A DNA stretch of 63,912 nucleotides, filler included, from Albugo candida (lineage: Eukaryota): assembly GCA_040437565.1 (NCBI GenBank). It is 7 parts of 7 records of this genome, joined end to end, with 100 filler letters (N's around TTAATTAATTAA, not from the genome) between each part and the next. Parts side by side here need not be neighbours in the genome. Positions count along the whole stretch, not along the records: positions 10,185 to 20,095 come from JBDOQK010000118.1; 6 more parts are not named here. One strand, given 5' to 3'. The stretch's first letter is position 1. Every line of letters starts with the position of its first letter. The position numbers and the translations under genes were made by a program. A model generated the notes under the pieces. That model saw only the letters and a list, made by a program, of their open reading frames with translations, did no database searches and was not told the DNA's origin. Below are positions 1,901 through 39,626 of the stretch, in pieces.

Positions 1901-4900
1901 TATTATTACAAGGCTGAATGGTGGTGAATGAGATTGCGCAAGAAAGTTGAATAAAGTGTTTCTTGTCTCTGGCTGAAGCTCCTGCAGTGCAAGAAATGAG
2001 TCAAATTAGTATGAGATGTATTTCTAGTAACAATATCTTCCTATTAGTCCACGAACTTCGTATGACCCGCTCTAATACGAGGTGACTGGAAACGTTTTCC
2101 GATTTTGACTGGCTGAGTTCTGATAATGGTGCGAGTTCCATGGTGGCAAGCCCGTTGAGGGTGACATGGGGAAGGCCCACTCAAGGATGGCTCTACATAT
2201 GAACTGCCCACACGTTGCTCGGATAATCATTATCGTTTTTCATCAGATTCCGTTTATTTGTTTGACTCGGCTTGTAAAAATATGCATGCTGGCGGTATTG
2301 ATTCGAGATAAGCAGATGCGATCTTCTTGTGAGTTTTCCTTCTGCTGTTGCCTGAAAAAGGGAATTCTAGAATGACGTATGCAAACTTGAATACAGGCAA
2401 CTTCGAAGGTTATGCGATCGATAATTCGATTTTCCTCTCTGACAAATCTACAGAACACAAGCCTAATGACGTGCAGGAAGGTTCAGCTTGTAACGTTGTC
2501 CGAAGAGCCCACGCCTTTCTGCCAGCACGTAAAAATACCTGGGGCAGAATATCCAAAAGAGGACCCATTCTTATGTTTAATGGCAATCAGAAAATTGTAT
2601 GGCGTGCATAGATGGTTTTGATCATTTCTGAAAAGGTTATATTCATACATTTTTAAACGGCATAGTAAGCAAGCTGGCCTCCAGGAGAAAAAGTTAACTG
2701 CGACATATCTTCAACGAGACTCAATCTACAAAGTGCAAAATCTGAAGTAAACCTTATGATTAAATTTTTTTAGCGTACACTTTATATTTGTGTACTCTTC
2801 AACAGTCGCTTTACTGCGTGTGCTAAAAATGGAGTGTCCGAATTGTATAAAACATTGCCAGGATTCCTAGAAGCGACTTTTACATTAAAAAAATACAGAA
2901 GTGGCTCTCTACGCCATTTGATCTAATTATTTTTATCTGATTTTTTATGAGACACGCCGCAGGTCATAGTCGTGATCACTTGTTGTAAACTGTGCAATCT
3001 ATGATCAATCATTGGCTAAAAGCACACATCATACCTTCTCTAACATCGTAAAATCCGATAAGCCAAACACCCGGATGTTTCTATTGGATGAAGTAAGTAT
3101 CACTGCCGCTTTACAACAAAAGCAAAGGACGATAGTGCCGAATTTGCAAGAGTTCACACGTACACTATTCCAATTGAATGTTTGATGTGCTATGGAAAGT
3201 ACGTACCCGTACGATGAATCCATTTTTGAGTTTTGCTCCATCAAATAATAGCTGTTTGCAGACGTCGATGTGGATAATGAAAATGGAGCAGATCTTTTAG
3301 ATTGCCCTATCATAGACATTGGTATACACTGTATATTTCAATGTTGATGTGCTCATTCCCCTACTCCACAAGTACATTAAAATGACCAAAACGTACATTA
3401 GTTTCAGCTGCTAGTAAAAGCATAGAAACTCTGCAGTGCTGTATCTGTACACACTATCTATTCTTGGTCGGTTGGACCACGGTTCTGGATTCTGTCCTGG
3501 ACAAGGATATCTTCGACTGGCATCTAGAGTTCCTAAATGGCTGTTTCACGTGCCGAGTGACAGTAATCGAAAGATCCGACAGGCAGCTGACAGCACATTG
3601 GCTGAGTTTTCAAAGAGATGATGGAGTCCACTTAAGTGGAATATCAGGGTATAGTAGATATCTTGGCCCATCAATCGTAATCAAAAGAGCGATTCAATCG
3701 CTTAACAGCAATCATCTGGGCTCATGAATTTGTTGATTTAAATGGTATTAACTTCTCAGCTTTCATGTTCATGTAATATGCGCAATTGCGCACGGCATTT
3801 TAATCGCTGAACACGACATTAGTCAAGTTGCTGAATGAGCAAATGAAGATTGCTCGGAATTGTTGAATTCGAAAAAGCAAGATCTGGAGTATTCTCCATT
3901 CATCCAAAATCTCTGCTGTGAATATCTAAGTGATCATGTACCTACATGGATGGATACGTCGCGCTGGATCAGTGTTTCCGATGCCGTTGTACTGATACAC
4001 TGCGAAGTCTTGGACGGATATCTATGAATAGGCACGATAATGTCTCAGTGCTATTCTGATTTTATTGCAAATACTTGGCGTCTGCTGGAGACGCGTGAAA
4101 GTCTGTTTGTGGCGCAAAGTGTACGCCGTACTGGATGCTAAACGTATTTTTATGGTATTTGTCAAAGTTTGGTCAGTATGGAAAACGAAAAGCTCAAGTC
4201 AGTCGATCAAGAAGAAGGAGGAACACTTATAGTCACGGAAGCTACCTACCTTAAAGAAGGATACCGGGAATGGCGGTATTAATGAAGGTCAAGTCATCGT
4301 GCCAGGCTTGGATCAATTCGATCCAGAGTTTGCTACGCTGATGTTCCGTACTTTCAATCTGATTCTATTAACCACAGCAGAAAAGGACAATTTGATACAG
4401 AGTTTTCAGGTAGATGCCAGCCTAAAAGGTACACAAGTTTTCATGGTATGGCTTCATCCAATAGCATGGCCACTTGTTATCCTTTTTATGTGTAGACGTT
4501 ATTCCAGTCATGGGTGGTACAATCCGGTTACTGCCTTCAGTTTAGGTTGACTGGTTCAATTATACTCGTTGTCGTCCGCGTTGGTCAGCATTTTTTTTCT
4601 TTTCATTGCCGCTGTCCGCACTTTCACATCACATTTATGTGAACGAAGAAGACCACCAGTGAATCAGGTTCTACGTGCTGCATTCTCAATGGGCTGATGA
4701 AATTCAAACAGATAGAGCAACTCTTATGGATGCTATCCTAGAGATGGTCCCAGAAGTTGAAGCGTTTATCAATCGATACCCAGAAACGCTAAAGATAGCT
4801 CAACAATTGCTATTTTAGGTACTTTAACCAGTTGAGGTGTCTGTCGGCTGTCACGATAGCTCATGGGGACTGTTACTAAAGAAAAAGCCAGCACAATGAA

Positions 4901-6789
4901 TCCACACATAAGACGATATCACGATTAGAGTAGCATTTGCCAAATGTAACATGAAGGAGAGCATGCAGCTTTAATTGAGTTCACTAGGGGGTCTGGAAGC
5001 AAATCTCTACGATACGTTGATCGCTTTCTTGATCGATAGAGGTACGAGTTAGCACTTCGAACGACTCGATGAAGGTGCCGGACAGAGCACAAAGTGGTCG
5101 AGATCGATCAATAAAGGCGTTTCACTTTCTTGATGCCGTGATACTCAAAACGCAGCAAGATTGCCAATATCTTTATTATGTGAATGGAGCTATGATTCCA
5201 CAAATAGAAACAAACTTTGGTCTTGGAAAAACGTTCGTCCATGATGATGAGGTGGTTATGGATCCTTGCAACTGTAAAGTAGCCTCGTAATCGGATGGTT
5301 CACTAAAAACTAGAGTTTTGACCCACGTGTCAATCACGATACAGACGACATTGGAGCGATTGATGATGTGATAGAGGCTCTATTGATGCGTTTGATGGGC
5401 TACTCAGGAACTCAAATTCACAGAAGACACATTACGAAATGAAATGTATGCAATGAAATTGCTTTACGAAACTGCAAGCTGTATCTCCGATGCGTATGAA
5501 GTGGCATTTTTGATAGCGGTTTGTGAAGAGAGTGTACCGAAACTCTGTCTCAGAATCGTATTACATTGGAAAGCATTACCGTATTTCGACATCCGAAAAA
5601 CCGCAAACTATCGCCTGTGATTCAAAGTTGCGAGCAGTGCTGCAAAATCATGTTCTTCCAGTTCACTTACACCGTAATACGATGGAGCTAATTCTGTCGT
5701 TTGACTGCTCGACATTACAGCAACATGTCTCACAATGATGCTTGCCTAAAAGAGATTCAAATGCAAGACAAACAGCTGGAAAACCCGACTAGACGCCTCA
5801 ATATATGATATTTCGTGTATGTTGAAGAATTTTAGATATCAAAGACTAAATATGGACCATGTGAGATCAGCACTCTTGTTGTTCAACAAGCCTCAGAGTG
5901 TACTACGCACGACATCAAACATTCCATATAAGACCTTGCTGGAGGCATTAATGTCATGTAGGTGTGATAGAGATTCTATTTCGAATAGAATATAAGACCG
6001 ATAATGCAACGCTTGTTCTAAAATATACTCGAACTCATTACTCTTCATATCACCTTCCTGTCGACCAAACATTTTGATGAGATCGGTTTCGATTACCTCG
6101 ATCGCTAATATCGAGATTTCAGGAATATAAGCTTATGAAGCTCGCAAGGGTTTAGTTGAGCCGAATCTCATCACCATTTCTCCTGACTTTATGCAGTTTT
6201 TCTCTAAATTATGCGCAGACGTGGGAGTGTATGGCCAAGTTGAGACGAATAACCTGACGGAAACGAATTTATCGTTCAAAAAAATTTTCGACGAGGAGAA
6301 GCCGCTACTTGGAGCTCGTGATGTTCTTTTAAAGATTTTATATTCATATTTATAATGATAATAATGTATAATAATAAAATAATACTGTAAGACATCAAAA
6401 CGTGATCCTCACGCTATCCGCGAATATTTTCGATATGGTACGGACTTTGATCAGCAATGCTGTGTCAGGAAGAATATAAAATCGCCAATTTTGTATTTTT
6501 TGCAGTACATTTGGACCATCAAAGTCGATAATCTATTGCCGGAGGGTTGTCATTCAACACATGGGCGCAAAGGCATGACATTCAGGCGAGTAGAAGGATT
6601 CCTAGTAAAATAACAGCGAACGTCATACTGAAAAGCATTCTTATCCATGCTTCTCTCACGTGTTCATGTAATAGTGCGCTATGCACATCCAGCCGCGAGC
6701 AAAGTAATGTTACGAGTATTTCGGAGCAGCTTGCATGTGGACCATCAGATGTTGTATTCGTCCAAACTCGCAACGATCTTGATAACCGA

Positions 6790-6930
6790 AGCATTTGAAT
6801 CAACAAAGAAAAAGCAGGAAGATCCTATTAGTTTACTTGGGATTGAACGAGAGCACGATGCTACCCAAGATTCACAGATAAAAAAACATTACATCCGAAG
6901 ATGCACAGTGGTTCACTTGATGCAAACTGG
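6790..6930 (+). pseudogene. Possible degenerate J-domain fragment
   Basis: DPISLLGIEREHDATQDSQIKKHYIRRCTVVH resembles J-domain helices I-II, but the HPD motif is missing. Confidence 0.25.
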
Positions 6931-8199
6931 TTGGTCAAGATATCATCAAGTAAGACAAAGACAATACGGAATCAAAAAGTTGTCAGGAATCTCATGATTG
7001 TAATCGATTTAGCACTGTAAAAAAAAGACAAAGCCGCTTTGAGAAGGTTGTCTCCGAACATCCTATAACGAACTATAGAACGGATGCGATGCTGGTTAAC
7101 GATGCAATCACGATGGCAAAATGTGTACGATATCAGCTCCTTTCAGATAAATACCGATAAAACGCGTCTTCATCCTATCAAGCTCCAAAATTCCAAGAAA
7201 ACTCCCGAGCACCCACACTCCGATTCTCCTTCAATGTTTTTCATATATTATTTTCAGCCTCTTAAGAAGTGGAAGACATCTAACAAGTGTAAGCTGCAAT
7301 CTGTTGTTGGTGAAGTCGATTCGAAGAGTGCTTTCTCGCAAATACCGACTACCGCTTCGCCGATTCAAAAATTCCATCTCAGATCAGACGACTCGGCCGA
7401 AGGCGTTGGTCCGCGACAGAAATTCTAGTTGCGTGTCATGTTTGTGAGCATACACTTTCTGTTTGCCTCATTATCTGAAGCAGGAATGGCAGTGCTGCAA
7501 TATCTCTGGCCTTCTTTTGAAGACATTACGAATGCGAAATCTGGTACAAGATCGGCGTGGATGCTGCGAGCCGGCCAGCACCACCAATGATACTATGTCT
7601 AGCATGTTGTCCCAAGCTTGTAGTGCTGTGAGAAATGCGACCTTGCACGTGTTTCACTCTGTTTTGACTCCGGTGAAGTAAGGAAGCTTTCATGCTGGTC
7701 ATCTTTCCTCAGCTGTTCAATCAGCTTCACGCAAACAAAGGAGAAATCAAACACGAAAACGTGCTTCATAAACGTATTTGAAGATTATTTAAGCACAATG
7801 ATTCTCGAGCCAAGCCGTATATCTCCCACGGCTTCGCTTTGAAGAGCATTTTCTTGTGATACCAACTCAATGGAGCACGTCGACAAATCGCTGAAGTCGC
7901 GGAGCATGAGCAAGCCATGAGCAACGTGCGTTTTCTTTCAACATTTCTGTTTGCGTCATTCGTATTCTCAGCCAGCGTCGAGAACTCATTCGCACGCAAA
8001 CACGTTCGGGTCCCTGTGAAGTGGTAATTTTCAAAAACTTTTAGAAGCTTTCTATCTCTTACTCTCTCTATTTTGCACTATCTCAGCTCACAGAACTCAG
8101 AAAAGTATGAAATTTGGATCCGTTTTTTTACTTAGAGGCTCCCAATCTACTCGTTCCGATCCAAGCCATCTTATACGAGCCAGCATGCATCAAGGTTTA

Positions 8200-10084: not shown

Positions 10085-10184
10085 NNNNNNNNNNNNNNNN
10101 NNNNNNNNNNNNNNNNNNNNNNNNNNNNTTAATTAATTAANNNNNNNNNNNNNNNNNNNNNNNNNNNNNNNNNNNNNNNNNNNN
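10085..10184. other. Artificial scaffold linker; the same linker occurs at 20096-20195, 29588-29687, 38980-39079, 47941-48040 and 56893-56992
   Basis: 100-nt N run with a central TTAATTAATTAA (stops in all frames). Intervening scaffolds are 9911, 9392, 9292, 8861 and 8852 bp, in descending order. Confidence 0.95.
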
Positions 10185-12145
10185 ATCCATCAGGAGTTGT
10201 GCTGCGCCATCCAGGTAAGGTTATCACGCCCGGGTGTAACTTTGCTGAGGTAGCATATATACGTATTTATCGAAGAAGTAGATCCTACTAGTTTTAGTTT
10301 ATTAGCAGCATTCTCGAAATATACTCTTCTGTAGTGTTTAGTCTATACACTACGCTCGTTATAGGAACCTCACTAAGAAAAGAAAGGGCTTTATTGATAT
10401 TATACGTCAGCCGGTTGGAGAGCTTGAGAACACTATCCCATGTTGGCATATTATTTGAACGGAATATTTTGTGTCGTGGTCGGTTTTACTAAAATTGGAA
10501 TTTTGAGGTTTCAGGACATATTTTCGACTTTCATGTAGTCTCCAACTTTCAAATCGGGGGATTGATTATATTGTGTACATCAACGAATTGTGTACGATTT
10601 TCACTCAAATGGCTCCGAATGCCCAATATAGTTTTTCGCATTATCCATCAGGAGTTGTGCTGCTACGATCAAGGTAACTGAATATGTTCGCTTACAGAAT
10701 ATAACGAATCTCCCGATTAGAAAGTTTGAGACTACGTTCAGGTCGATGGTACTTCAAAATGTCATACTGAAGACGACAAATAAGATTCTGTTTCAAATAA
10801 TACGGTAACATGCGACAGTGTTCTTAAGCTCTTGAACGGGCTGGTGTATACAACTGGAATACATTTTCTTAGAAGTGAGGTTGCTATAACGTGCGTCGCA
10901 TATAGAGTCCACACTACAGAATAGTATAATCCGTGAACGCTGCATATACATACAACGAGTAGGGGCTACTTGTCTGATATGTAGGTGTTATCCGCTGCCG
11001 CATCAGACGCTACACATGTCGTAAAAACCTTCGTTGATCGCATCTTTACAAAACTCTTGATGGATAATGCGAAACCTGTATTGGGCAATTGCAATCATTT
11101 GACTAAGAATCGAGGAGAATCTGTTCGCTTACTCATACCTCAAAAATTCCAATTTCTCTCCAAACAGAAGAAGACCAATAAGTCCCGTTTCAAATACAAG
11201 GCATACATGGGATAGTGTTCCTAAGATTCTCGAAGTGGCTGGCGTGTACTACTAGAAAGCCATTACTTTTCTCAGTGAGATTGCTATAACACTACAGAAG
11301 AGTATATTCCCGGAATGCTGCTTAAATACCACAACTGGTGAGGTCTACTTCATAGATATATAGGCATATCCGCTATCGCACCGACGTTACACATGTCGTG
11401 AAAAACGTACCTTGATCGCAGCGGCACAACTTCGGTGGATAATGCGAAAATTTATATAAGGCAATCGCAACCATTTTAGATAAAATCGTTGAGAATTAGC
11501 TTGTTCACACAAATTTCAAATCAGCTGATTTGAAAGCTACAGCCTTCAATAAAGTCCCGTTAGTCACGTAATACGTCGAAATTCCAATTTTTCTAAACCA
11601 AAGACGACAAAGAACGTTACGTTTCAAATAATATGCTAACATGCGATAGTGTTCTTAAAATCTCCAACACGCTGGCGCAAAATATCAGAAAAGCCCTTTC
11701 TTTTCTAAGTGAGATTGCTATAACTGGCGTAGTGTATAGAACCCAACACTACAAAAGAGTATATAGCGGGAATGCTGCGTGTATACTACAATAGTACGGT
11801 CTACTTCTCCGATACGTAGGTATATCCGATATCGTACCTGACGTTACACATCACGTAAAACACTTATCTCAATCGTAGCGGCACAACTCTTGATGGATAA
11901 TGCGAAACCCAATACCGGCCAAACGCAACCATTTGAATGAAAATCGTAGAGAAGTTTTTCGTCTACAAAATATAATCAAGCCCACCCCGTACACAAGCTT
12001 GAAACTACATTCAATTCGAATATATTACTAGATACCTCTAAAGTTCAATTTTGTCAAACCAAAGTGGCCAAAGAAGGTTGCGTTTCAAGTAATGTGCTCA
12101 CATGCGATAGTGTTTTTGAGCTCTCGAGAGGCTGGCGTATACTTA
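10185..12145. repeat. Diverged tandem array of a ~458-bp unit with an orientation switch near 10680
   Basis: ATCCATCAGGAGTTGTGC occurs at 10185 and 10643 (period 458). The reverse-complement landmark GGATAATGCGAAA occurs at 11062, 11437 and 11895 (periods 375 and 458). Confidence 0.85.
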
Positions 12146-12149
12146 TGTA

Positions 12150-13111
12150 ACTTTTGCTCGCAGTGAAACCACATCGGTTGTGCCATGTAAAACTTAATGC
12201 GTTGTAAAACATTCCAATCTGTTATTGTGATGCTCTAATCCATGTGATGCCACAGTTTTAATTCGTGTTTCCACCACTACGATTTGCTCTCCCTTTATAC
12301 CCTTTTGCCATGTCGATGTGGTGTGATGGTGAAGATATTTATCGGCTTGTGTGGTCCAAAAGAAGGTTGAATAAGTTGTATTAATTCCGTCGAAGCAGTT
12401 GTCCATTCGCAGGAATGATTTTCGACTCATCGGATGAGAACCCCGCTGGAGGAATTGAATACGTTGCAGCTTTAGACGTTCCACTAAAAAAGTAACTTGT
12501 AGTTCACCATCCTGTCGGCGAACATATAAAAATGCTTTGCTGATCAGGTGAACATGCTTTGAATCTTTTTTGTGGTGCCGACCAAGCACAAAAAAATTTC
12601 GATCTAACATTGACTGCCGCTGTCGAGTAATCTCTGCTGGTATATCAACGTGCATAGCCTTCCTAGCTCAGTTGAAGGTGTCTATATTACTAGAATNNNN
12701 NNNNNNNNNNNNNNNNNNNNNNNNNNNNNNNNNNNNNNNNNNNNNNNNNNNNNNNNNNNNNNNNNNNNNNNNNNNNNNNNNNNNNNNNNNNNNNNNATCG
12801 GCTTGTGTGGTCCAAAAGAAGGTTGAATAAGTTGTATTAATTCCGTCGAAGCAGTTGTCCATTCGCAGGAATGATTTTCGACTCATCGGATGAGAACCCC
12901 GCTGGAGGAATTGAATACGTTGCAGCTTTAGACGTTCCACTAAAAAAGTAACTTGTAGTTCACCATCCTGTCGGCGAACATATAAAAATGCTTTGCTGAT
13001 CAGGTGAACATGCTTTGAATCTTTTTTGTGGTGCCGACCAAGCACAAAAAAATTTCGATCTAACATTGACTGCCGCTGTCGAGTAATCTCTGCTGGTATA
13101 TCAACGTGCAT
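12150..13111 (-). mobile_element. L1/Tx1-like non-LTR retrotransposon ORF2 fragment (post-RT region); 12341-12696 is duplicated across the gap
   Basis: VHLISKAFLYVRRQDGELQVTFLVERLKLQRIQFLQR resembles the post-RT 'PK..GGL' region of L1/Tx1 ORF2. The 5' truncation abuts AGCCTTCCTAGCTCAG. Confidence 0.6.
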
Positions 13112-13127
13112 AGCCTTCCTAGCTCAG

Positions 13128-14917
13128 TTGAAGGTGTCTATATTACTAGAATTAGACTAACTGACTTCTCTAGTCGTCTCGGCTACCTTAAATAACATAT
13201 ATACATATAAACACGTTTTACAAAATACCTTTGAGAGATGATATTATTTCCCTCGTTGCTAGTCCTGCAGTGCGGTAGCGTCCACCACTACAGTTCGAGA
13301 GTGTATCCATCGTGTAACGGATAAATGTTTAAAGGTGTAAAAGGTTCTGAAAAATGGTCCAAAGTACCGCGTTTTATAAAAGGATCCAAAAGTACCATGC
13401 GTTGTAAGACGGTCCAAGCGTAACGTTTGTTGTAAAACGGACCAAACGTACCGTGTGCTGTAAATGGTCCAAAGTACCGTGCTGTGCGAATTGTTGCGCG
13501 CCCCACTACGTTGAGCATAAGCAGCCAACTGAAATAAGATCCGAGTTCAACTTGCATTTGGACTCGCCTATGGCGTAGCCGTAGCAATGATCTTCAACTT
13601 CTAAAAAAATCCGCGGAATGATCCATGCGTTTGAAGTTGCTCCAAAAACTTTGCAAGCCCATTGCGGTCCTCTTGTTCGTAACACTGTGTTCGATGGTAT
13701 CGAACGTGCACACTAAACGTGGTGTAGATCACGGGAAGTCCTGGAACTATCGGAGTTGCTGATAGCTTATCGAACAAACGATGATTCCGATCTGTCCAGA
13801 CGAAGTGCAGTGTCACCGCTTGGAATGCAAGCCATAATTCTAATATAATCTCTAAATATTCTTTCCAATCCGACCGTACTGTTGGGACAATTCCACATGC
13901 AATATGCGTCCAACGTGGTCGAGAGGAGAAAAACTGATCCCAACTAGGGATTAACTCCCTCCATAATTGTGCCGTGTGATCGCACTCTAAAAAGAGATGT
14001 TGATCGGATTCCACTNNNNNNNNNNNNNNNNNNNNNNNNNNNNNNNNNNNNNNNNNNNNNNNNNNNNNNNNNNNNNNNNNNNNNNNNNNNNNNNNNNNNN
14101 NNNNNNNNNNNNNNNCACATGCAATATGCGTCCAACGTGGTCGAGAGGAGAAAAACTGATCCCAACTAGGGATTAACTCCCTCCATAATTGTGCCGTGTG
14201 ATCGCACTCTAAAAAGAGATGTTGATCGGATTCCACTCCCACACGAAGGCTGCGTGCATAATATAATGTCGGGCTGAATATCTTTTCAGGAACCAGAAAC
14301 GAGATCGAACTGGCAGCATCCGAAAGGCTAGACGAAACCGTAAATTCTCGAAAATTGGTAATACACGTTTTCGAAGATGCCGTGATGTAGCCACAAAAGT
14401 TCGAACTCGTTCTGAATCCAGTGCGTGCGATCTCTCCCGTGATGATCAATGTGTCGCCATCGGATGAGTCTTGGTTGGTTCGGGAGGTTTCCAGACGATT
14501 TTGACAGTTGTGAACGTGGAATGGATGGAGAATATTGTTTCCTTTCCTTGTTTTTGACTCCCACATAAAATGATCTGCCACTCGTGGTTGGTTTAATCCA
14601 AGTGATGAGCCCAATCGTCGAGTGGATACGCTGTAGTATCTGAGTGACTTCATTGTTAAGTAACTCAGCAACTTTACTTCAGCCATATCGGATGTGTTTA
14701 GCTCTTCATCGTTGTAATAGTTGGCGATGAATTCATCCTTCGTTGGCCATGTCTCACTTTCACGAATAAAGTCTTGCAGACTTCGAGTCTCGAAAAGCGT
14801 AGCGAGCGATTTCCGAAATTTTCGATGTGGCTCGTCCACCTCGCCAAGATTGTACCAAACATTTTGCGTCCTGGGATGACCAGTAGCAGCTTTGTAATGT
14901 AACTGTTTCCGCAGTGA
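13128..14917 (-). mobile_element. 5'-truncated L1/Tx1-like element with zf-RVT C-terminus and 3' tail, flanked by a 16-bp TSD
   Basis: Contains RLAFRMLPVRSRFWFL...VESDQHLFLECDHTAQLWREL...VTLHFVWTDRN. AGCCTTCCTAGCTCAG lies at 13112-13127 and 14918-14933. Confidence 0.8.
13352..13487. repeat. ~28-bp minisatellite, 5 diverged copies, inside the L1 3' region
   Basis: Repeated units resembling AA(T/C)GGTCCAAAGTACCG...TGTA. Confidence 0.75.
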
Positions 14918-14933
14918 AGCCTTCCTAGCTCAG

Positions 14934-17831
14934 TTAAGAGTGTTCGCCCGTAGTATGTGGACACCGTTCTGTTACTACAGTATGGTGGTTATCTACCCTA
15001 TCCTAATCACTTCTATGTAACGCTCTGAAGAGCCCGGTCCAACTCCTGTACAGTTATTTCTGGTGTAGTTGCCAAAGGTCTTGACACGTCCATATCTTCA
15101 AAGATAGGTTGATGTTCACGGGGAGGGCTCTTTGGCTCCGCCGAGGGGCCCCACCGCAGCCTTTTTTGCCACCTCCCCGGATTCGAACCGGGGTATACAC
15201 CGTCGGAACACATGTGTACAAACGCTAAGCCCCCCGACGGACTTCTCTATTTGTCAGCTGCTACGTACTTCTAAAACAAACTTTCTACCCTGTCGAAGAT
15301 AATGGTTTCTATCGACATCTCAAGCCTTCCTACCGTCACCTCACCGGTTGTTGACCACCCGTATTCTAACAACTTGTCCGTTACATCGCCGGATGTGAAT
15401 AACTTGTCTCCTCGTAGCTCGTCCGTTCGTGACCCGTTACCTGTAAAGTATACGCCCACGTCCTCCCCTATACCGTCAGACCCTTTACCTGTTGACGTGA
15501 TAATTGGCCAATCAGAGGCCGCTATGGAGATTGAGACACCTCTCTCTCCCATTCCAATTCCTGCCAATCTGCTGGTCGCAATGGAGGTGGATGACGCGTT
15601 GCCGTCAGCACCTCGGAAACCGGTTGAGCAAGGCCAGAAAACCGGTAATCGGCCAAGTCTCGCCGATCTCCTGAAGGGTCATGAGGAAATCTGCAAGGAT
15701 AATGCTACTAAAAAGCAAATCCTTTACCGTCAGATCTACGCGCTATTGAAAAGCTGTTAGAAGACGGCCGTTCAAGTTGCGGGGTTTGTCTGATCACTAA
15801 ACTGCAGCCAAACCTTTCGCATTACCGAGCGCCAAATTCTCCGCTGTGTTGGAGACTGGGCAAGCGCTGGTTCGAACCACACCAGCGCACATTTTGCGAT
15901 CTTTTGTGTGAGATCATGGTAATGTGACAGTCGACGAGCTTTTCGAAGCTAGAAAAATTGGCCAAGTGGCAAAATTACCTGGTGGTAATTTGAGACTACT
16001 TGTTATCGACGAGGAAGCCTGCCAGCAATTGGCCAATGAAAAAGATACGATTCTCAGTAACATCTACTCCTTCCGAGAATTTGATATTCTGGGCTTACAC
16101 TTTTTTTGAATATTTTTAGAATTGGACCGGAAATGTCCACTCTCAACTTGCGTCGGCATTCCATCGTCTTGGTTGCGATGTTCTGTATGAGTTCGCGAAG
16201 CCACTGCTTCGCGAAGACTTTCCACGTCGACTTGGAGAGTTTATTGCTGCGGCGCAAGCTGTCCTGACCAGATCAATGTTGGCGGCAAGAAAATATGTAT
16301 CTAGGGGAGATACTACTTGGCTCGAGGAAAAGCTTCTCCACTCCCGGTTGATCGGTTGAGGATGGGTCAGCGCAGTCCGCATTGCTTACTGCTGCCGGTG
16401 ATGACTCCTCAACCGAATCGGCAACAAAAAAAAATCGACTTCATCGGCTGAAAGTCAGCCCGTGAAGTCACAACCGAGACAACAACCAGACAGAATCAAC
16501 GTAAACATGCCTGACGTGTCTAAACAAAGTCCCACAAACAAGCTTCCTGCTCGTACAGTCCCTTCTGTTAGCTACGCTGCTGATGGAAACGTTTCCAAAG
16601 TACCCAACTCGGATCCATCCCAACAGCATATTTCTTCTGCGGTTCCGGATGTCAACAATAATGAACAAAAACTTGCAGAAAAAGCCTCGTCACAGTCTAC
16701 TGAGGATACGTGAACTCCAAGTCGAACACGCAACAAGCGCAAACACTCGATCGATCGCTTTCAGAGTTTACTAAGCAATGCCTCTCCAACATCGTCGGAA
16801 GGTTTTGCTACAAGCAATTAATTTAATGTGCTTGGCTCGGTCGACTTGGATTTTGTGAAAATCGACGTAACAACGAAAGCTGACTTAGAAAGAGGTACCA
16901 GATTGTACCATACGAGATTGTGGTTGAAAATGATCTGGCTAATTCCAAAGAAGCGTCTCATTTCATGAAGAAGAACCACACCCGGATCGAGAANNNNNNN
17001 NNNNNNNNNNNNNNNNNNNNNNNNNNNNNNNNNNNNNNNNNNNNNNNNNNNNNNNNNNNNNNNNNNNNNNNNNNNNNNNNNNNNNNNNNNNNNCGACTAT
17101 CCTTCTGTATCTTACCAGTTCGAGCACGATTTTGGTTTTTACAACAATCACATCCAGAATCATCCTGTGCACTCAGAAGCATTGTGGTGCGGTCGAAAGC
17201 TACCAGCATTTGTTTTCTCGATTGCAACAGGACAAGTCTAATTTGGGAGGAGCTCTTCTCGTAGTGGAAAATCTTCTTTTCTGATCGCCCGCGATCGTCA
17301 CACATCGCTTATGCACGGATTTCTGCACTTCGTGATGTGTGGAAGCCTTTTCAAGTTGTGCTGGAGGATATTTGGTTTACATTAGTCGCGGTCGCGAATC
17401 ATTTATTTGGACAGTTCGGATTCCCAGACTTCGCGCCGAAGGCACTTCGACACCAACTCTCTAGCTGTTTCGGTGATTTATAGCACACTGAGTGCCTATA
17501 TACGCTCTTTTCAACGGAAGTGCTATGATACGGAGCAGCGCGAGCAGTTGACACAATTATTAGCGACTTATCAACATACTGGTTCAGCCAGGAGGTATTT
17601 CTCTGCTCGGCCAAGCCTGCTTCAAGTTCGACGCTGTTAGTGATGCCAAGTCGGTGATGCGTGGCGTTTCTAACTCAGTACTATCTTATTCCAGTCGCTA
17701 AGGCTCGCTGCGGCTTTCTCGACCAGCATTGCATTCATTTAGTGTATTTATTGTAGTTTAGGCATTAGAGAAGTCAATTACGTCTAATTCTAGTAATATA
17801 GACAACTTCAACTAAGCCCCCCGACGGGGTC
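14934..17831 (-). mobile_element. tRNA-headed SINE of ~311 bp (14934-15240 plus 17828-17831), split by an L1 insertion
   Basis: The reconstructed head is GACCCCGTCGGGGGGCTTAGCG...CCCCGGTTCGAATCCGGGG, with a perfect B-box and T-stem. It is bounded by AGCCTTCCTAGCTCAG at 14918 and 17832. The 3' end ...AACACTCTTAA resembles the L1 end ...GACACCTTCAA. Confidence 0.7.
15241..17811 (+). mobile_element. L1/Tx1-like element: degenerate ORF1, gap, ORF2 C-terminus and 3' tail, with a 16-bp TSD
   Basis: ORF1-like pieces at 15302-15760 and 15924-16109. The zf-RVT region (LSFCILPVRARFWFL) lies at 17094-17640. CTAAGCCCCCCGACGG is identical at 15225-15240 and 17812-17827. Confidence 0.8.
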
Positions 17832-17895
17832 AGCCTTCCTAGCTCAGTTGCAGTTGTATATATTACTAGAATTAAAAGTAAATGACTTCTTTGAA

Positions 17896-19885
17896 TGTAA
17901 CGTGGTTACACGTCGCTTAGAAACCGTTACGTAGTGTTGTATACATTTGGGACGCTTTGGGTTATTCGCTATAGGAGCTGACGCGTGTCACCCACCGGAT
18001 ATTGGTAACTAGGTTTGGTAGGTTTAGCGTAACGTACTCTTCGAGATAATAAAAAAAAAAAGTTGGCCTTTAGATCAGTTAGAGACACGTCCCTGCTTCA
18101 GGCGTCTCAGATCTTGTGCACTTTGTGCTGTGTTGTCCATTCCCGGAATCGTTAGGTTCCTTGAACAAGGACCTTAAGCTTCAAGGCTTGCTGACTCGTT
18201 CAGTCTAGTTCTTTTAAAGAACTAAGTTGCTCGTTTAGCAGATAGCATTCCTCTTGAAAGGAGTTAGAGTAGCTCCGCTACACGTGGTAGCACTCGTACT
18301 CAATCTACACGTGAGTTTGTGAAGACTGATCCTCTGTGAGGATGGAACAGCCCACTTCCCTCTCTGAGGCACAAAGGGTTTCGCTTGACAAGCTGACCGC
18401 ACCAGTGGGCCCCGAATATGTGGAGTTTCTTGTTTAGCAAGGCCCGGACGTGTTGAATGCACGTCTTGAGAGCTTCATGCAGTATGAAACGTCCCTATTA
18501 GGGCAGGTCTGAGACCAAATGGCGTCGGCTATGCCAACACGCTTTGTGTCTGTTACCAGACGAAGAGGGTAAGCCTCGTCCAGTAAAGTTGGATGTCCGT
18601 CACTTCTCCGGTAAGGAAGGTGAAACCTAGTCTTCTGGATTTGTGAGGTAGAAATGGCCATGAAGTCTGGGATGATCTCGGTTGAGCATCAGTGGGTCTC
18701 GCTGACGGTCAACAAGCTCGATGGTAGAGCTAGAGAATGGGCGCTGACGTGCGGTACGTCAGTGGGCATGGTGTTCCCCACATGGGCTCGCTGAAGTTGC
18801 AACTCACGCGCGTCTTTGCGCCGCCTAATTAGTCATATCGCGTGCGGTCACGCTTCTTGTCTAGCCGTCAGGGTAAGAGCGAATTGTCGGACTATGTCCA
18901 AGAGTCGAAAACACTCATAGCTGCTATGCAGAATGAGTCTCTTCCTGAGCTGATCCATGTGACCGTGTTAATGGAAGGGCTTCGCACTGGCGTTGAAAGA
19001 AACTAGTCTTTCGAGTTCACCCGTCTAGCTTTGATGAAGCGTTCGAAATAGCTCAGAATGCTGAGCACAACTTTTAAGTCGGCTAGACTTGGTTAGAATG
19101 GGTATAATCCAGGTTCTGCGAGAACATGCTCTATGAGTACATCGGCTTTTTGTAAGCATGAGCCTATGGACCTTAGCAATGCTGAAGGTGAAGCCGACCT
19201 TCAAGTTGCTAAGCAATACCGCGACATCTGTCGATGCTATTCGTGCGGGAGCACTGACCATCTGCGTCGCAGGTTCCCGTTGCGCAAACAGCGCCAGGCT
19301 CAGTTGAAGGTGTCTATATTACTAGAATTAGACTAACTGACTTCTCTAGTTGCCTAGGCTATCTTAAATAACATATATACATATAAAAACGTTTCGAGAA
19401 NNNNNNNNNNNNNNNNNNNNNNNNNNNNNNNNNNNNNNNNNNNNNNNNNNNNNNNNNNNNNNNNNNNNNNNNNNNNNNNNNNNNNNNNNNNNNNNNNNNN
19501 CGGGGTTACACGTCGGTTAGTAACCGTTATGCAGTGTGGTACACATTTGGGACGCTTTGGGTTATTTACTTTAGGAGCTGACGCGTGTCACCCACCGGAT
19601 ATTGGTACCTAGGTTAGGTACGTTTAGAGTACCGCACTCTCCGAGATAATAAAAAATAAAGAACAGTTCCCCTTTAGATCAGTTAGAGACACGTGCCTGC
19701 TTCAGGTGTCTCAGATCTTGTGTACTTTGTGCTGTGTTGTCCATTTCCGGAATCGTTAGGTCCCTTGAACAAGGACCTTAAGCTTCATAGCTTTCTGACT
19801 CGTTGATTCTAGTTATTTAAAGAACTAAGTTGCTCGTTGAGCAGATAGCATTCCTGTGGCAAGGAGCTAGAGTAGCCCCGCTATA
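17896..19885 (+). mobile_element. Ty3/Gypsy LTR retrotransposon, degenerate, with pol lost in or at the gap
   Basis: 5' LTR 17896-18282 (TGTAAC...GCTACA) and a similar 3' LTR at 19501-19885. PBS-like TGGTAGC. Retrotrans_gag (LDGRAREWAL...RFLSSRQGK) and a degenerate knuckle CYSCGSTDH. Confidence 0.85.
19304..19400 (-). mobile_element. 3' tail of another L1-like copy inserted in the Gypsy gag
   Basis: GCTCAG|TTGAAGGTGTCTATATTACTAGAATTAGACTAACTGACTTCTCTAG, identical to the tail at 13128. Confidence 0.8.
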
Positions 19886-20195
19886 CTAAATGCCTAGATT
19901 ATAATAAACAACATATAATACATGCAGATGTGGCTTGAAAAGTCACAAATAGTAAACTTGGTGCGGCTGAAGACGGTTGAGTAGACTAGCCCCTCGACTC
20001 AGACTTGTGAGCGCTCACGCCTTCGTATCTTGAGAAGATCTGATCTCCCGGAGAAATATCTTTTTGCTGAACCTGATTGCAATAAACCGAGCAAANNNNN
20101 NNNNNNNNNNNNNNNNNNNNNNNNNNNNNNNNNNNNNNNTTAATTAATTAANNNNNNNNNNNNNNNNNNNNNNNNNNNNNNNNNNNNNNNNNNNN

Positions 20196-22150: not shown

Positions 22151-23730
22151 CACTCCGCGCCATAAAGATAGGGACACGTGTTTTTCTTAGAAAAAGATGT
22201 GAAAAAAGTGTAGACTGACTGCACTATACATACATTAGATTAAAATAAGCACGGCGGTTTGGGTTCTTTACTCAAAGTCAGAATTGGATTTTTCAATCTA
22301 TAGTTATGAGCAAAACAGGGAAAATAGGCCGCGTCAAAATGATAAGGAATACCTGTTATATTGCGCGTTCCTCGACTTTGAACACTGCATTTATGCTCTA
22401 AGAGTGGTGCTAGTAGTGTGTCTTGAAACCCTTTAGCTCAATGACCTCCAAGAAGCGATCGCTCATCGATTTCAAGAGCGCATGTAGCCGTTCTTGACTG
22501 ATTTCTGACCACGCTTCCCTGACTGCCGCATCAAGCTCGCCAACCGAGTGATATTGGCGACCGTTATCGTAAACAGAACGCGCAATGTCACCCCAGAGAT
22601 TCTCTATCGGATTTAGGTCCGGCGAAAGAGACGGCCACTTCATCACATTGAGTTTGAGGTCCTTGAGAAAGGCACAGGTCGATTTAGATGCATGGATACT
22701 TGCGTTATCATGCTGAAATTCGTAGCCATCTTGATGTTCACGATCTGCGAAAGGTAATAGATGGTTAGTTTACGTCTCCTGGTAGTCAAACGAGTTCTGA
22801 CGACCATTCAATGTGGCCAAGGATGTCAACCCTTCTGCGGAGAAACCGCCTCAGACCATGATGCCACCCCCTCCAGTTTGACGGCTATAAAATATCCTTG
22901 CTTCAAGCCCGATATCGTGCCAATAATACTTGCAACCATCTGGTCCGTCCAGCGCAAACCGTTTCTCGTCTGAAAAGATGATCCGGTCCCAGCCAGTGCA
23001 ATCCTTGAGCTTCTGTTTGGCCCGTTCAAGTCGTGCCGTGTGGTGGCGCTTCGTGAGTTTCGGCGTGGTTTCATTTTCTTGTAGACAAGATGAGGCGCTC
23101 ACTGGAGAAGGCGCTGAACGGTCCTCTCGCTCACCTGTGGGCTCACGGTGTTGGCGATGGCAGCAGCGGACAAATCTCCGCTGATTGCGGCATTGATGAT
23201 GCACCGCGCATCACACGGCCCAAGTTTCGGCTTCCTTCCAGGGCTCTTTCTCATTCCATAGCCATCAGGATTTCTTAGGTAAGCGTGGACGACGTCTGTG
23301 GAGCGCCCTAGGCTCGCAGCAATCGTCCGTAGAGTTTCTTTGTTCGACCTGAGGGCGTCAATTTGCCCTTTCTCGTACTCGGTCAGAGCCGGCTTTCGCC
23401 CCATGGCTTCGCTTCAAAAAAACACTAAACTCGACTATGAGCATGCAGAAAACATTCAGAAGAATCCATCCATGTTGACAAAAGGCGAAGAAAGTGCGTT
23501 GTCTACCTGTGTGGTCGAGTGGTGGTGGTGTACACTATCAATATGTCGCGCAGGTCTGTGTAACTTCCCGCCAAATTTCCCACTTCCACTTATCCGATCA
23601 ACACAAACAAAACGCCAAAACGATTGGTTCAACGTAGGAAAATGTTTTATTCAATCAGTAGTCAAAACAAAGGAAAATTAAGCACAATTCAGAAAATAAA
23701 CGGTTGTCCCTATATTTATGGCGCGGAGTG
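22151..23730 (-). mobile_element. Tc1/Tc3-like DD34E transposon, full length, with a frameshifted transposase (23404-22410)
   Basis: 26-bp TIRs CACTCCGCGCCATAAAGATAGGGACA (1 mismatch), with TA on both sides. HTH N-terminus, then FSDEKRF / HDNASIH / SPDLNPIE with 34-residue D-E spacing. Confidence 0.95.
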
Positions 23731-29520: not shown

Positions 29521-29989
29521 GATCCGGATCGGACCACAATAAATCACACATTGGGCCTTCATGAGGAACTTCTTGTAATCGATCCAANNNNNNNNNNNNN
29601 NNNNNNNNNNNNNNNNNNNNNNNNNNNNNNNTTAATTAATTAANNNNNNNNNNNNNNNNNNNNNNNNNNNNNNNNNNNNNNNNNNNNCCAAGCCCGTATA
29701 CTATACGTACGGATATACACATTGCACACTTTCAATATCAGCAATGGAAAGCGACGACACAAATTAGCAGCAGCTTCTTTCGATAACATGAGTCATGCCA
29801 AAAAAAGGGATACAATTTAAGCAGTAATGAGTACAACCGAGAATGTGACCGTCCGTTTTGTGTAGTATCAAGTGAAAAGCGTTATAAAGCAGTGTGCACG
29901 CAACATGACTGTTTCTTTGTTGTGCAGTTTTCCTTTTCGCAGACAATCAGCCCCCCAACAAAGTTTTCTTTGCACTCCTGTCAAGTATT

Positions 29990-36059: not shown

Positions 36060-39000
36060 TTCCTTTCGTTGCCGAGGGAGTATCCTTATAATCAATCAAA
36101 AAACTAGAATCACTTGAGTCACTAGCTTGTAAGAAATCGTTCTATAAAGCGTCCGCTTGATCCTAGCAGCCGTGCTCCATAGTTTTTGAGTGATCATATC
36201 TCCTATACAGTGAAAATAAAACTCTACGTATGAAATTCATCCATTATTCAGCATAATATAAAATTCCCACAGCAACTGATCTCTGTATTCTAGTAGTCAA
36301 AATAGCATTATCGTAACATTTGATCCGATGAATGGGATGTCAAGTTTTGTAACTCGTGGCATAAAGTCTTTTGGGATCTCGTGCGATTTATGGTTTTAAG
36401 AAAGTCCACGGACCAGATCAATGACAAAAAGAACTTGCAGACAGGGCAATACATAACATGCAAGATCAGTCTCGACCCTTCTTTTTTCAAGTTACTGCGC
36501 ATATACCGATTATTACTTTGATTGATAGACAGTCGAGCTCAAGATCACTGCGCAAAACGTAGATGAAAGATCGTAAACATGGTCAGTATTGTTGAGCGAT
36601 ATGCCGTCTACTTGTTGACACGATTTTCAAGCAGACTGTGATAATGCCAGAAAAATGGCTAAACCTCTATAGTCAGCAGGCTCTCTGACTAGCTGCTTGT
36701 ATTTATGTAGCGCGTCAAATGTTTGTATCAATCGGCATGGGAGTTAGTTGTAGTCATAAAGCCGAGTGAAGCTTACGGATTGATATGGTGAGAGAGATGA
36801 AGATGACTTTACGTACGGGGACGGATTCATCACTGTGAACTTAATTGTATGAATGCACGTCCTACATTTTGAACAAATCCCAACTAAAGTCGTGTGCACA
36901 GGTCTCCATTTCAAAGTTGATTGTTATCATACACTATATACGTACCTTGTGAACTATAGACTACAAAAAAAGTAGATCAGGAGATAACTTGGAGGAGAAA
37001 AGTAAGAACAACCTATGCAAATTTTCAAGATAGATCCAAGCATGTATACCCTATCTTTATACATATGTGCCCGAAGAAAATATGTCGCGAAGAATACTGT
37101 TGTTTGAATTTGAGTAAGCACTACTATATAAATTCAATATGAAAAAAGGCGATCTTACGCCCATTTTAATGAATCTGCGCTTCCGATTGATTGATAGTTA
37201 CCAGCATCAAGAAAGCTGTAATAGCTAAATTACTCGGTATGGCTGATAGGGTGTGCAAACATGATTATCACTTCGGCTTTGCGTTTTTTTCATTCTCGAG
37301 ATTTGAGACTCAAAGTGATCGTAATAAAGGAAGCTAGAAGCTGTAGCTCTAAATATATAAAGGAATAATCGAGAGGGCTACGCCGGCGCGAGCTGATGAA
37401 CACAACTCAATAAACGGAGTGGTGCACGGTAGTGGTAAAATACCTAAGATACGATAGCACCAAAGATGATTCTCGCCTCTCGACACCATGTAGACTTCAT
37501 TGACACGGGTCCAGATTGAGGACTCACTTCTGTATCTGTGATAAGATGTCTGTGGCTTCCTTACAAGCGTACTACAAAGTACTCAGTTCACGGAATGGAT
37601 TGGAGACAGGTGTGGTATGCTTGAAAAAGTTCGAATTGAGTAGTAGTTCCTGAATGATACTAAATTATTCGTGTAGTTTCCAAAGGTATGACGGTAATAA
37701 CAACAAACGGCGAGTCCCATTGCGAATTTAGCTGCATACTGGGTATCTCAGGTAAAGGAGGGTTCGTCACATCACCATAATCTACTATGAATGAATGGGC
37801 TCAAATTAGTAGCTTCGTCATCGCAAAATCAATGAGTATATCACACAGTGACATTATTGTCACATTTCCTTCTTTCTTACTGCAACAGAATTGCCATGTG
37901 GACCACAGCAGGTACATTTATACAACAATCGGAGTCTGGTGAAGGGCTTGTGAACATCAGACTCACAATTACTTAGCCGAATGCCATTTCGATCAAATGG
38001 ATGGGACCTTGAATATGGCATTGCTGCATCGCATATTGGCAAGAATGCCGATATAAATATGTTTGCTCTTCGTATCGTTCCTGTGGTATTCTTTGGCTCA
38101 GTATTTTTCCAATATCGTTGGATGATAATTTTGAATATGATAAGAGCTCACTTTGAAACATAGAAATCGACTATATGATAAATCGTGTTTCGCTTCAATC
38201 AGTATTCTCTCAAGCGCTTTGATTGAAAAGGTATTTCTACAAGAAGAAAGCCCGTTTCAATTTACACAATACTCGTAATGATGAGTTTAACCAAAGAACT
38301 TATCGTACTTCAGCGCATCATCTGAAAAAAAATTATTGACTGACGCACGTATCAAAATTTTCTTTCAGTCAAAAGTGCTCACCGACATGTTCAAGTAATG
38401 CGATATCGACCCCAACTCGCACCTCCTCTTCCTCTTCACAGCAGGTTGATTGTTGATTCTCTCAAGAGCTTAAAATTGTATTGACGATATATAGGAGATT
38501 GTGTGGAATATACGAGCAATGTTGACGTCTTCCGTATTAATCTGAGGCACAATAGTTGTCGAAATAATCCCACGTTGATGGTGTTCATCTTGGTCAAAAA
38601 AGTGAGTTGATAATTGACAGGGACTGTATATACATATAAGTGAAGCATTAATGCCGTACAGCTTTGTTTTCAATGATAGTCCAGCGCTCCGCATGCAAGC
38701 CCTATTATTTTGTTTTCTTATTAGAATTGCATCCTTTGGTCTTGCACAGATGCAACGAAAAGTTTCTTGACTCCATTGACATCAAAAGCATCCAATTGCA
38801 GCGACATACAGTATGTTTTAACGTCGTGGTTTGTTCTACCCCGCTTCTTATGGTGTGATAATTGAGATCAATCCATGAGTTGTGAACAGCTGGACTTCGT
38901 GTTGTTGATAAGGATAAATGGTTACATTGCCATGATTGGATGTAACAAGTAAACTAAATTATATCCCTGTCGGGATGCCNNNNNNNNNNNNNNNNNNNNN

Positions 39001-39626
39001 NNNNNNNNNNNNNNNNNNNNNNNTTAATTAATTAANNNNNNNNNNNNNNNNNNNNNNNNNNNNNNNNNNNNNNNNNNNNACCAAGGATGGAAGTGAAAGC
39101 ATTGTAGATGAAGTTGGTAAAACGTTTCTTTGTCAAAAGCTCCGAATCCAACATGATCGATTGCTCCAAGGAAGCTTATATAATTGTAATATGCTGCTTT
39201 GCCGCTCACTATCTTCATATTTTGTGAATTTTCGTCTCCTTGCACTTGTGGTTGAGAGAATAAAGTGGTATAAAGCAGTTCGCATGTGCTTGATACATAT
39301 GAGTGTATTGAATGGGGCATCGTTTGTGTGAGCAATTGGCCAAAATCGTAAGTAACTAGGACTGAAGAACTCTTGCACCATCAATTGAGATCATTGATAC
39401 AAAATTACCAAAGCTTGTAAGATTAAATCTATCGCAATGATTTTGTCTCATTTGTAGTATCACTACAAGTTAGAATAAGGGACAGACTCTGCAGTTCAAA
39501 ATAAACTCCAAGTGTACGCTGAGGTACTGATTAATGCAAGTCAGAGCCATATGTATACAGCTTTGTAACGTGATACTTCTATTGCAGCGGACTAGCGTAT
39601 AATCCTTGACTAGCCAATGACGTGTG

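Follow-up and report, generated by a model that had tools for sequence, protein, structure and literature searches.

Sequence-specific long interspersed elements (LINEs) are among the few natural systems that insert RNA-templated DNA at defined sites in a programmable manner, and those known mostly target ribosomal DNA (rDNA), small nuclear RNA (snRNA) genes, telomeres or microsatellites. The classical sequence-specific LINEs that encode an apurinic/apyrimidinic-type endonuclease (APE) are those of the Tx1 and R1 clades (PMC4640811), and the Tx1-clade members Tx1L, Keno, Mutsu, Dewa, Kibi and Koshi insert into multicopy small-RNA genes, spacers and repeats (PMC4494074, PMC4640811, PMC3706591). 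In the sections of these papers available to us their targets are U2 (Keno), 5S (Mutsu), a tRNA-Leu spacer (Dewa), microsatellites and a Mariner DNA transposon, and those sections do not report the RNA polymerase III (Pol III) A box as a target (PMC3706591, PMC4494074). Oomycetes are recorded as hosts of U2-specific Utopia elements, and the elements lacking long terminal repeats (non-LTR elements) NeSL-1_TV (tRNA-Pro), LIN15_SM (tRNA-Arg) and LIN25_SM (tRNA-Glu) lie inside tRNA genes (PMC4640811). The Dada DNA transposons, among them Dada-tIA, Dada-tIB and Dada-tY_PMar of Perkinsus marinus and Dada-t of fish, also lie inside tRNA genes, in the A box (PMC3706591, PMC8869645), and the Dictyostelium TRE5-A and TRE3 and yeast Ty3 retrotransposons are described as using tRNA genes as safe havens. 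Here we describe an L1-like LINE family and a partner short interspersed element (SINE) found in a 63,912-nucleotide stretch of Albugo candida DNA (assembly GCA_040437565.1; hereafter the window), which probably share an endonuclease that nicks within the A box of tRNA genes and in sequences resembling it.

The evidence that carries this reading is a junction rule. At seven of seven 3' junctions (four L1 and one SINE in the window plus two in metagenome contigs described below) the sequence in element sense is ...AA/CTRAGC, where the slash marks the junction, and at all seven the element lies antisense to the motif GCT(C/T)AG. CTGAGC is found at six of these and CTAAGC once, at a plus-strand L1 copy; five of the seven read CTGAGCTA, and five distinct target sequences are represented. 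In element sense the window junctions are ...CACCTTCAA/CTGAGCTAGGAAGGCT for L1 copy A, ...CAACTGCAA/CTGAGCTAGGAAGGCT for L1 copy D, ...CACTCTTAA/CTGAGCTAGGAAGGCT for the SINE, ...CAACTTCAA/CTAAGCCCCCCGACGG for the plus-strand L1 and ...CACCTTCAA/CTGAGCCTGGCGCTGT for L1 copy E. The 24-nt L1 tail TTCTAGTAATATAGACACCTTCAA occurs with 0-3 mismatches at 13128 (minus), 17788-17811 (plus), 17848 (minus) and 19304 (minus), and also at 12672 (minus), with none expected from shuffles. A preliminary description of this DNA had placed L1 3' junctions at 13128, 17811, 17848 and 19304 and a SINE junction at 14934, and all five are where it put them.

The minus-strand elements are separated by the 16-mer AGCCTTCCTAGCTCAG, which is present exactly at 13112, 14918 and 17832, as previously reported, and once more at 12656 (four matches at two or fewer mismatches versus 0.05 expected over 100 shuffles). 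The copy at 12656 is an assembly overlap. The window is composed of seven contigs of ~7-10 kb each, joined by N44-TTAATTAATTAA-N44 linkers carrying stops in six frames (10085-10184, 20096-20195, 29588-29687, 38980-39079, 47941-48040 and 56893-56992). Features are not readable across these linkers, and the element array is confined to the contig at 10185-20095. This contig contains four 100-N gaps, two of which are false: 12341-12696 and 12797-13152, on either side of the gap at 12697-12796, are 100% identical over 356 bp, and 13894-14015 and 14116-14237, on either side of the gap at 14016-14115, are also 100% identical. Both are unmerged assembly overlaps in which the flanks have been doubled, and thus the 16-mer and tail at 12656 and 12672 are the same site as those at 13112 and 13128.

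The three remaining 16-mers, all in plus orientation, each join the 3' end of one element to the 5' end of the next: L1 A to L1 B at 13112-13127 (the site duplicated at 12656-12671), the SINE to L1 A at 14918-14933, and L1 D to the SINE at 17832-17847. Hence, the minus-strand order is L1 D, 16-mer, SINE, 16-mer, L1 A, 16-mer, L1 B, head to tail; one and the same 16-mer borders both the SINE and L1 A at either end. The units differ, which excludes an origin by tandem duplication of one unit, and the array fits repeated hits on one regenerated target, as the preliminary description had put it. The plus-strand L1 (15241-17811) is exactly flanked by a second 16-mer that had also been noticed, the target-site duplication (TSD) CTAAGCCCCCCGACGG at 15225-15240 and 17812-17827 (plus strand; 16 of 16 positions, none expected by chance). 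This TSD includes CTAAGC, and its upstream copy is preceded by ...ACG rather than ...CAA. Because the 16/16 duplication contains CTAAGC, and because the flanks of the other junctions differ beyond CTRAGC, the motif is target DNA and not element DNA, again in line with the earlier account. The L1 5' ends vary (about residue 860 of the relative P0011 introduced below in copy B, about residue 1040 in copy A, near full length in the plus-strand copy and a split 3' untranslated region (UTR) in copy D) and the 3' end is the same in all. Variable 5' truncation, a fixed 3' end and 16-bp direct repeats are the footprints of target-primed reverse transcription (TPRT).

The rule extends to the family as a whole. 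The region 13028-13327 was compared with raw reads labelled as the same species (X21) and with Logan contigs from three additional runs. In X21 11,030 reads were placed, 9,455 of them fitting only partly. Read depth was ~7,500-8,100 over the tail versus ~36-41 at 13038-13057 on the copy B side, and thus there are ~200 tail copies of at least 85% likeness. Mean depth was 4,065 in the bin 13118-13127 and ~205 in the bin 13108-13117, so most junction reads extend 4-8 bases past the junction; given random flanks a matching extension of four or more bases is expected in ~0.4% of copies. Loose ends begin before 13120 (1,471 reads, sharing TAGCTCAG), 13121 (730, AGCTCAG), 13122 (838, GCTCAG) and 13124 (1,356, TCAG). 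Cumulatively, TCAG or more is common to at least 4,395 junction reads, GCTCAG or more to at least 3,039 and TAGCTCAG to at least 1,471. The unaligned upstream parts agree with their consensus at only 0.34-0.45, hence many different sites share one of the three motifs. The three Logan contig sets break at the same points as the X21 reads. The preliminary description had said that random 3' flanks across the genome would speak against its proposal; instead the reads share TCAG, GCTCAG or TAGCTCAG and then diverge, and at motif level more than 20% of flanks are of one sequence type, the criterion given in the portion of PMC4494074 available to us. Specificity is therefore a graded motif preference, TCAG > GCTCAG > TAGCTCAG. 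A read joint at 13198/13120 (21 reads) shows that another 16-nt spacer, TGAGTGTT followed by TAGCTCAG, lies between two tails elsewhere in the genome.

Three further observations came from the reads. At 13118 a T rather than a C was present in 121 of 182 reads, so that a variant 16-mer is commoner than the assembled one. A joint on opposite strands at 13112/13122 (12 X21 reads and one contig each in X1 and X2) suggests an inverted arrangement in some copies or haplotypes. The loose-end consensus sequences would in part suit tRNA 5' ends, with G at +1 and T8, but they are mixtures (agreement 0.34-0.59) and were not used to assign tRNA identity.

Evidence that the motif is read within tRNA genes came from a metagenome scan with a 22-mer of the tail, which returned two contigs, L001 and L002. 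In L002 the tail, on the minus strand, adjoins GCCTCGATAGCTCAG at 1146-1160. This sequence equals nt 1-15 of an intact tRNA-Phe(GAA) gene at 470-543 of the same contig, and the sequences upstream of the two differ. Thus, a second tRNA-Phe copy has been interrupted after nt 15 by an element in antisense orientation. In L001 the tail adjoins antisense GGGGGAATAGCTCAG within a cluster of Pol III genes: tRNA-Thr(CGT) at 381-454, tRNA-Ser(GCT) at 1045-1127 and U6 snRNA at 1325-1403. In both metagenome contigs, then, the tail is antisense to a tRNA-like 5' end and directly follows its nt 15. The tail pattern gave no matches in collections of genome contigs and viral contigs. A protein-profile scan of genome contigs returned 14 distant L1-like loci (21-39% identity, in contaminated metagenome-assembled genomes (MAGs)), none of which has the tail, and these were not used to define the target. 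One of the bacterial-MAG contigs (L005) has seven tandem tRNA-like copies with a period of ~244 bp beside a distant L1-like reverse transcriptase (RT; 25% identity), the two features lying at 4272-5790 and 6001-7968; it is probably eukaryotic contamination and possibly another LINE associated with a tRNA array.

Compared with the A-box consensus, the octamer T8-A9-G10-C11-T12-C13-A14-G15 corresponds to the 5' portion of the box. The hexamer TAGCTC has been assigned to tRNA nt 8-13 within the A box in the sections of the Dada reports available to us (PMC3706591, PMC8869645). The antisense strand of the intact L002 tRNA-Phe reads ...CCCAA/CTGAGCTA and the element ends in ...TTCAA. Because of the overlap by CAA the final three nucleotides can be assigned to either, and any position from 15/16 to 18/19 is possible for the nick. 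The insertion into the SINE head has no such overlap, and there the nick lies directly after ...GCTTAG. The window 16-mer GCCTTCCTAGCTCAG may likewise be a tRNA 5' end, which would give a tRNA starting GCCTT(C/T)CTAGCTCAG. The duplicated 16 bp would then run from -1 to +15, as would those of L001 and L002. Targeting of the A box, the central claim of the preliminary description, is supported by the family-wide motif together with the tRNA-like hits at nt 15 in two of two metagenome contigs; for annotated tRNA genes as such, the evidence is that of these two contigs.

Judging from protein comparisons, the elements belong to one oomycete LINE family of the L1 group, whose intact relatives encode an APE-type endonuclease and an RT. 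A homology query with the open frame 14117-14929 led to P0001, a protein of 551 aa with an RVT_1 domain; it shares 71% identity with copy A and 77% with the frame left of 13112 (copy B). Longer relatives numbered 313 at E<=0.001, and the 120 listed come from, among others, Globisporangium, Plasmopara, Peronospora, Phytophthora and Aphanomyces. Many of the listed relatives carry both Exo_endo_phos and RVT_1, and open reading frame 2 (ORF2) proteins of ~1,340-1,400 aa are among them. In Pfam searches P0011 matches RVT_1 at E=1.4e-32, and both P0011 and P0023 match Exo_endo_phos. The named reference proteins used to place the family were human L1 and R2-type proteins (PDB). P0011 is collinear with human LINE-1 ORF2p from endonuclease (EN) to RT (E=3e-48, residues 26-820 versus 5-783), whereas it matches R2 proteins in the RT alone (E=1e-20), which is the basis for the assignment to the APE-type L1 group. 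The preliminary description had rested the clade on a zf-RVT C-terminus, and this did not hold: zf-RVT (PF13966) had no Pfam match in window ORFs at E<=10 nor in P0011 or P0023 at E<=0.1. Among the listed relatives PF13966 is present only in more distant ones (28-36% identity; precomputed annotation), and by eye P0011 and the plus-strand L1 show a C-x4-C...H-x4-C motif. The window copies hold P0011 residues from ~860 onward, with the RT core outside and no EN sequence (truncated or gapped). The element has no poly(A) tail and a conserved 3' end, ...ATTCTAGTAATATAGACAMCTTCAA. A 3' hairpin in the tail (GUCUA...UAGAC) was considered as an RT recognition signal and dropped, since five tail folds were no better than shuffles (z -0.65 to 0.0).

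The junction motif, the antisense orientation, the 16-bp TSD, the sharing of the motif across the family, the interruption of tRNA-Phe at nt 15 and the APE and RT domains of the relatives can be joined in the following scheme. The endonuclease, which would itself be the determinant of specificity, would nick the strand carrying 5'-(T-A)-G-C-T-C/T-A-G-3' immediately 3' of its last G. Within a tRNA gene the motif would occupy nt 8-15 of the sense strand (the Pol III A box's 5' half), with the nick after G15. The 3' OH at the nick would prime reverse transcription of the element RNA, and priming from a nick in the tRNA-sense strand would always leave the element antisense to the tRNA. In tRNAs having a ...AGTTGG D loop the terminal CAA could pair with T16-T17-G18, making the junction ambiguous by 3 nt. 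Cleavage of the second strand at -2/-1 of the tRNA, 16 bp upstream, would give a TSD spanning -1 to +15. One TSD copy, joined to nt 16-73, would rebuild a complete and presumably functional tRNA gene, together with the target, beside the element 5' end, and the other would stay as a 15-nt 5' fragment beside the element 3' end. The insertion would thus be harmless to the tRNA gene, and the rebuilt target would allow renewed hits, giving head-to-tail arrays of different elements separated by identical 16-mers, as at 12142-17895. The SINE would use the same machinery as the L1 family. Recognition would be of DNA sequence rather than of a Pol III complex, because GGCTCAG in the gag of an LTR element and GGGCTTAG in the SINE head have been hit; A-box-like sites in SINE heads and chance GCTCAG occurrences would accordingly be open to attack.

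We regard this scheme, a LINE family and its SINE partner that nick an A-box octamer, duplicate 16 bp and return repeatedly to the same site, as the probable explanation as a whole. Its strongest form is more tentative: that this is an undescribed APE-type L1-like lineage and SINE, conserved across oomycetes, which homes to nt 8-15 of many tRNA genes and by its cut at -1 to +15 rebuilds an intact gene beside every insertion. We hold that version to be possible but somewhat short of an even bet.

Several observations weigh against the scheme. The contig at 10185-20095 contains no tRNA gene by ARAGORN and none in Rfam at E<=1, and no remnant is visible, so that the tRNA origin which the preliminary description gave the 16-mer is putative. 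Both ends of the array are lost, one to a satellite-like repeat (10185-12141) and the other to the contig end at 20095. The DNA past 20095 is another, unrelated contig, and thus the expectation that a tRNA remainder would be found there is void. One of the five distinct targets is plainly not a tRNA (GGCTCAG at 19297-19303 in LTR-element gag), and the same gag contains an unoccupied TAGCTCAG at 19049-19056 (plus strand), 250 bp before that insertion. L001 and L002 contain a ~45-nt tail without an ORF and are probably from other species. The interrupted tRNA is seen only from its 5'-fragment side, and regeneration of the intact gene is inferred from geometry. In the SINE, nt 1-77 take a tRNA-like fold in ARAGORN only at the relaxed -ps80 setting. 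The estimated shares of at least ~60% TCAG, ~40% GCTCAG and ~20% TAGCTCAG come from a loose-end table of the best-supported groups, with 279 smaller ones outside it. Finally, specificity is loose: of the 4,395 junction reads listed, at least the 1,356 of the 13124 group have no more than TCAG in common, their upstream sequence being diverse and AT-rich with an agreement of 0.34.

The last of these points also speaks for the most serious alternative, a plain short-motif preference of the endonuclease. By this account TCAG or GCTCAG is cut anywhere and tRNA and SINE heads are merely common carriers of the motif, with no evolved relation to the A box. Motif strength does fall with distance from the nick, one insertion is in the gag gene at GGCTCAG, and the human L1 EN likewise has a short nick-site preference. 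However, both metagenome junctions are at nt 15 of tRNA-like 5' ends within tRNA clusters, whereas random occurrences of GCTCAG or TAGCTCAG would almost always be outside tRNA genes. Moreover, about half of the reads with GCTCAG continue with TA (1,471 plus ~190 of ~3,230), against 6-9% expected. In the three tRNA-like cases the 16-bp TSD starts exactly at -1 (in L001 and L002 as deduced), such that the gene would be rebuilt. We therefore consider a bare motif preference unlikely, although it is the strongest competitor of nicking at the A-box octamer.

A second alternative places the choice of site in the RNA. The read-through 3' flank CTGAGC(TA...) of the element transcript would anneal to the nicked A box and set the start of reverse transcription. 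Flank annealing is known for rDNA-specific elements of the R1/R2 type. The conserved motif would in that case owe more to RNA-DNA pairing than to the specificity of the endonuclease. The absence of poly(A), the very precise 3' junction, the terminal CAA that is antisense to tRNA T16-T17-G18 and the CTRAGC that follows every source copy seen would all suit such RNA-guided homing. Against it, the SINE-head insertion has CTAAGC and an upstream TSD copy without the CAA microhomology, and in any case the nick must still fall within a few nucleotides of the motif. We judge it improbable.

Tethering to the Pol III machinery (TFIIIC/TFIIIB), as with Dictyostelium TRE or yeast Ty3, would account for the tRNA-gene association, the tRNA-like SINE head and the Pol III gene cluster, but is very hard to reconcile with insertion at one exact nucleotide inside the gene rather than in a distance window (TRE5-A integrates ~50 bp upstream of tRNA genes in the accounts available to us), with a hit in the gag of a Pol II-type LTR element, where GGCTCAG is all that is shared, and with ~200 copies that share the motif and have diverse further flanks. 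That the 16-mer is part of the element, or that the array is an assembly error or a tandem duplication of a composite unit, can draw on the two 100-N gaps with identical unmerged overlaps and the false extra copy at 12656, and yet is scarcely credible given that the elements on either side of the three remaining 16-mers are not the same (L1 D tail, SINE, L1 A, L1 B), that the sequence after CTRAGC differs at other tails and that independent read sets break at the same points.

The copies in the contig were mapped by tblastn of P0011 against the window. L1 B (12142-13111, minus; P0011 aa 860-1026) spans the false gap at 12697-12796, is 5'-truncated in the RT thumb at ~aa 860 and is cut at ~aa 1026 by the satellite-like repeat, which has a unit of ~440 bp in direct and inverted copies of 68-80% identity and interrupts it at about 12142. 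L1 A (13128-14917, minus) is 5'-truncated and spans the false gap at 14016-14115; its ORF2 C-terminus (P0011 aa ~1040-1383) is at 14908-13604 and its 475-nt 3' UTR at 13603-13128. The break in copy B (~aa 1026, at 12142) and the 5' truncation of copy A (~aa 1040, at 14917) lie within ~30 nt of each other in the element, which could be chance or reflect recombination or a hot spot. The plus-strand L1 (15241-17811) comprises a 5' end, an ORF1-like region, a 100-N gap that covers the EN/RT part, the ORF2 C-terminus at 17094-17634 (P0011 aa 1214-1394) and then 3' UTR to the tail. Its segment 15807-16433 matches N-terminal, ORF1-like parts of long oomycete gene models, and no Pfam domain was found in the ORF1 region of this copy or of the relatives.

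L1 D consists of a 3' piece at 17848-17895 (minus; the last 48 nt of 3' UTR and tail) and a continuation at 19887-20095 (minus) with the ORF2 end (P0011 aa 1375-1397) at 20079-20011, followed by upstream 3' UTR, the copy reaching the contig end. Its 3' UTR is split by an LTR retrotransposon fragment on the plus strand at 17896-19886 (boundaries approximate), whose LTRs at 17901-18283 and 19501-19886 are 89% identical and whose gag is degenerate, with weak Retrotrans_gag and zf-CCHC matches. L1 E (19304-19400, minus) is a 3' end within this gag, after GGCTCAG, that runs into a gap. The TG...CA-like ends of the tail had raised the possibility of an LTR terminus, which was rejected since the tail follows ORF2 C-terminus and 3' UTR in copy A, the plus-strand copy and copy D.

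The SINE is ~311 bp long with the nested L1 removed and lies on the minus strand (17831-17812 plus 15240-14934) between L1 D and L1 A. Its body and 3' end occupy 14934-15240, the 3' end ...CACTCTTAA adjoining the 16-mer, and its first 20 nt, GACC plus a TSD copy, lie at 17812-17831. The head is split by the plus-strand L1, and its A-box equivalent, GGGCTTAG, is the nicked site. A B-box-like GGTTCGAATCC is present at 15179-15189 (minus) with a flanking 5-bp stem; ARAGORN gave no tRNA match for the SINE at default or -ps95 settings, nor did Rfam at E<=1. The SINE 3' end has only ...ACAC(C)T(C)TT(C)AA in common with the L1 tail, and the 16-mer TSD of the SINE is shared with the L1 copies. The sequence after the 16-mer at 14934 (TTAAGAGTGTTCGCC...) was considered as a tRNA continuation and rejected, there being no possible anticodon stem and nothing in Rfam; it is the SINE 3' end.

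Elsewhere in the window, a 1,841-aa open frame at 58083-63608 (plus) has DUF6570, Helitron_like_N, a PIF1 helicase and a C-terminal Exo_endo_phos_2, and is a Helitron with an endonuclease (Helentron-like). Adjacent ORF pieces at 22410-23413 (minus) resemble a Tc1/mariner-type transposase (...HDNASIHASK..., ...NPIENLW...), judged by eye from translations alone.

Our literature search found no description of an oomycete L1/Tx1-like family in the A box, although Repbase and Repbase Reports were outside its coverage and prior curation is possible. If the scheme is correct, the A box would be a new target class for APE endonucleases, and a non-destructive lifestyle inside Pol III genes would explain how a LINE/SINE pair could reach ~200 copies with little damage in the compact genome of a plant-associated oomycete. 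For annotation, such arrays yield tRNA 5' fragments and break assemblies, as the contig at 10185-20095 shows.

Human LINE-1 resembles the present family in TPRT, variable 5' truncation and SINE mobilization, and has a TTTT/AA nick, a poly(A) end and TSDs of variable length. In contrast, the family described here lacks poly(A), its 3' end is fixed, its TSD measures 16 bp and its nick motif contains G and C. TRE5-A, TRE3 and Ty3 differ in that, by the accounts available to us, they integrate at a distance via Pol III factors and not at a defined nucleotide inside the gene. The elements NeSL-1_TV, LIN15_SM and LIN25_SM share the location inside tRNA genes, but the relevant passages of the source describe a restriction-like endonuclease, a NeSL-related lineage and one tRNA species for each (PMC4640811). 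By target, the closest analogue is Dada. In the parts of the Dada reports at hand, several families have the putative TSD TAGCTC (nt 8-13) followed by AG, which is the octamer used here, and Dada, like the present family, recognizes primary sequence and forms tandem insertions in multicopy genes (PMC3706591, PMC8869645). The same parts give Dada a DDE transposase, 6-7 bp TSDs and one tRNA species per family, whereas the Albugo family is, judging from its relatives, an APE/RT retrotransposon whose TSD is 16 bp, whose nick follows nt 15 and which has entered several different tRNA-like acceptor sequences. Hence, if our reading is right, a retrotransposon and the Dada DNA transposons would have converged on an identical octamer.

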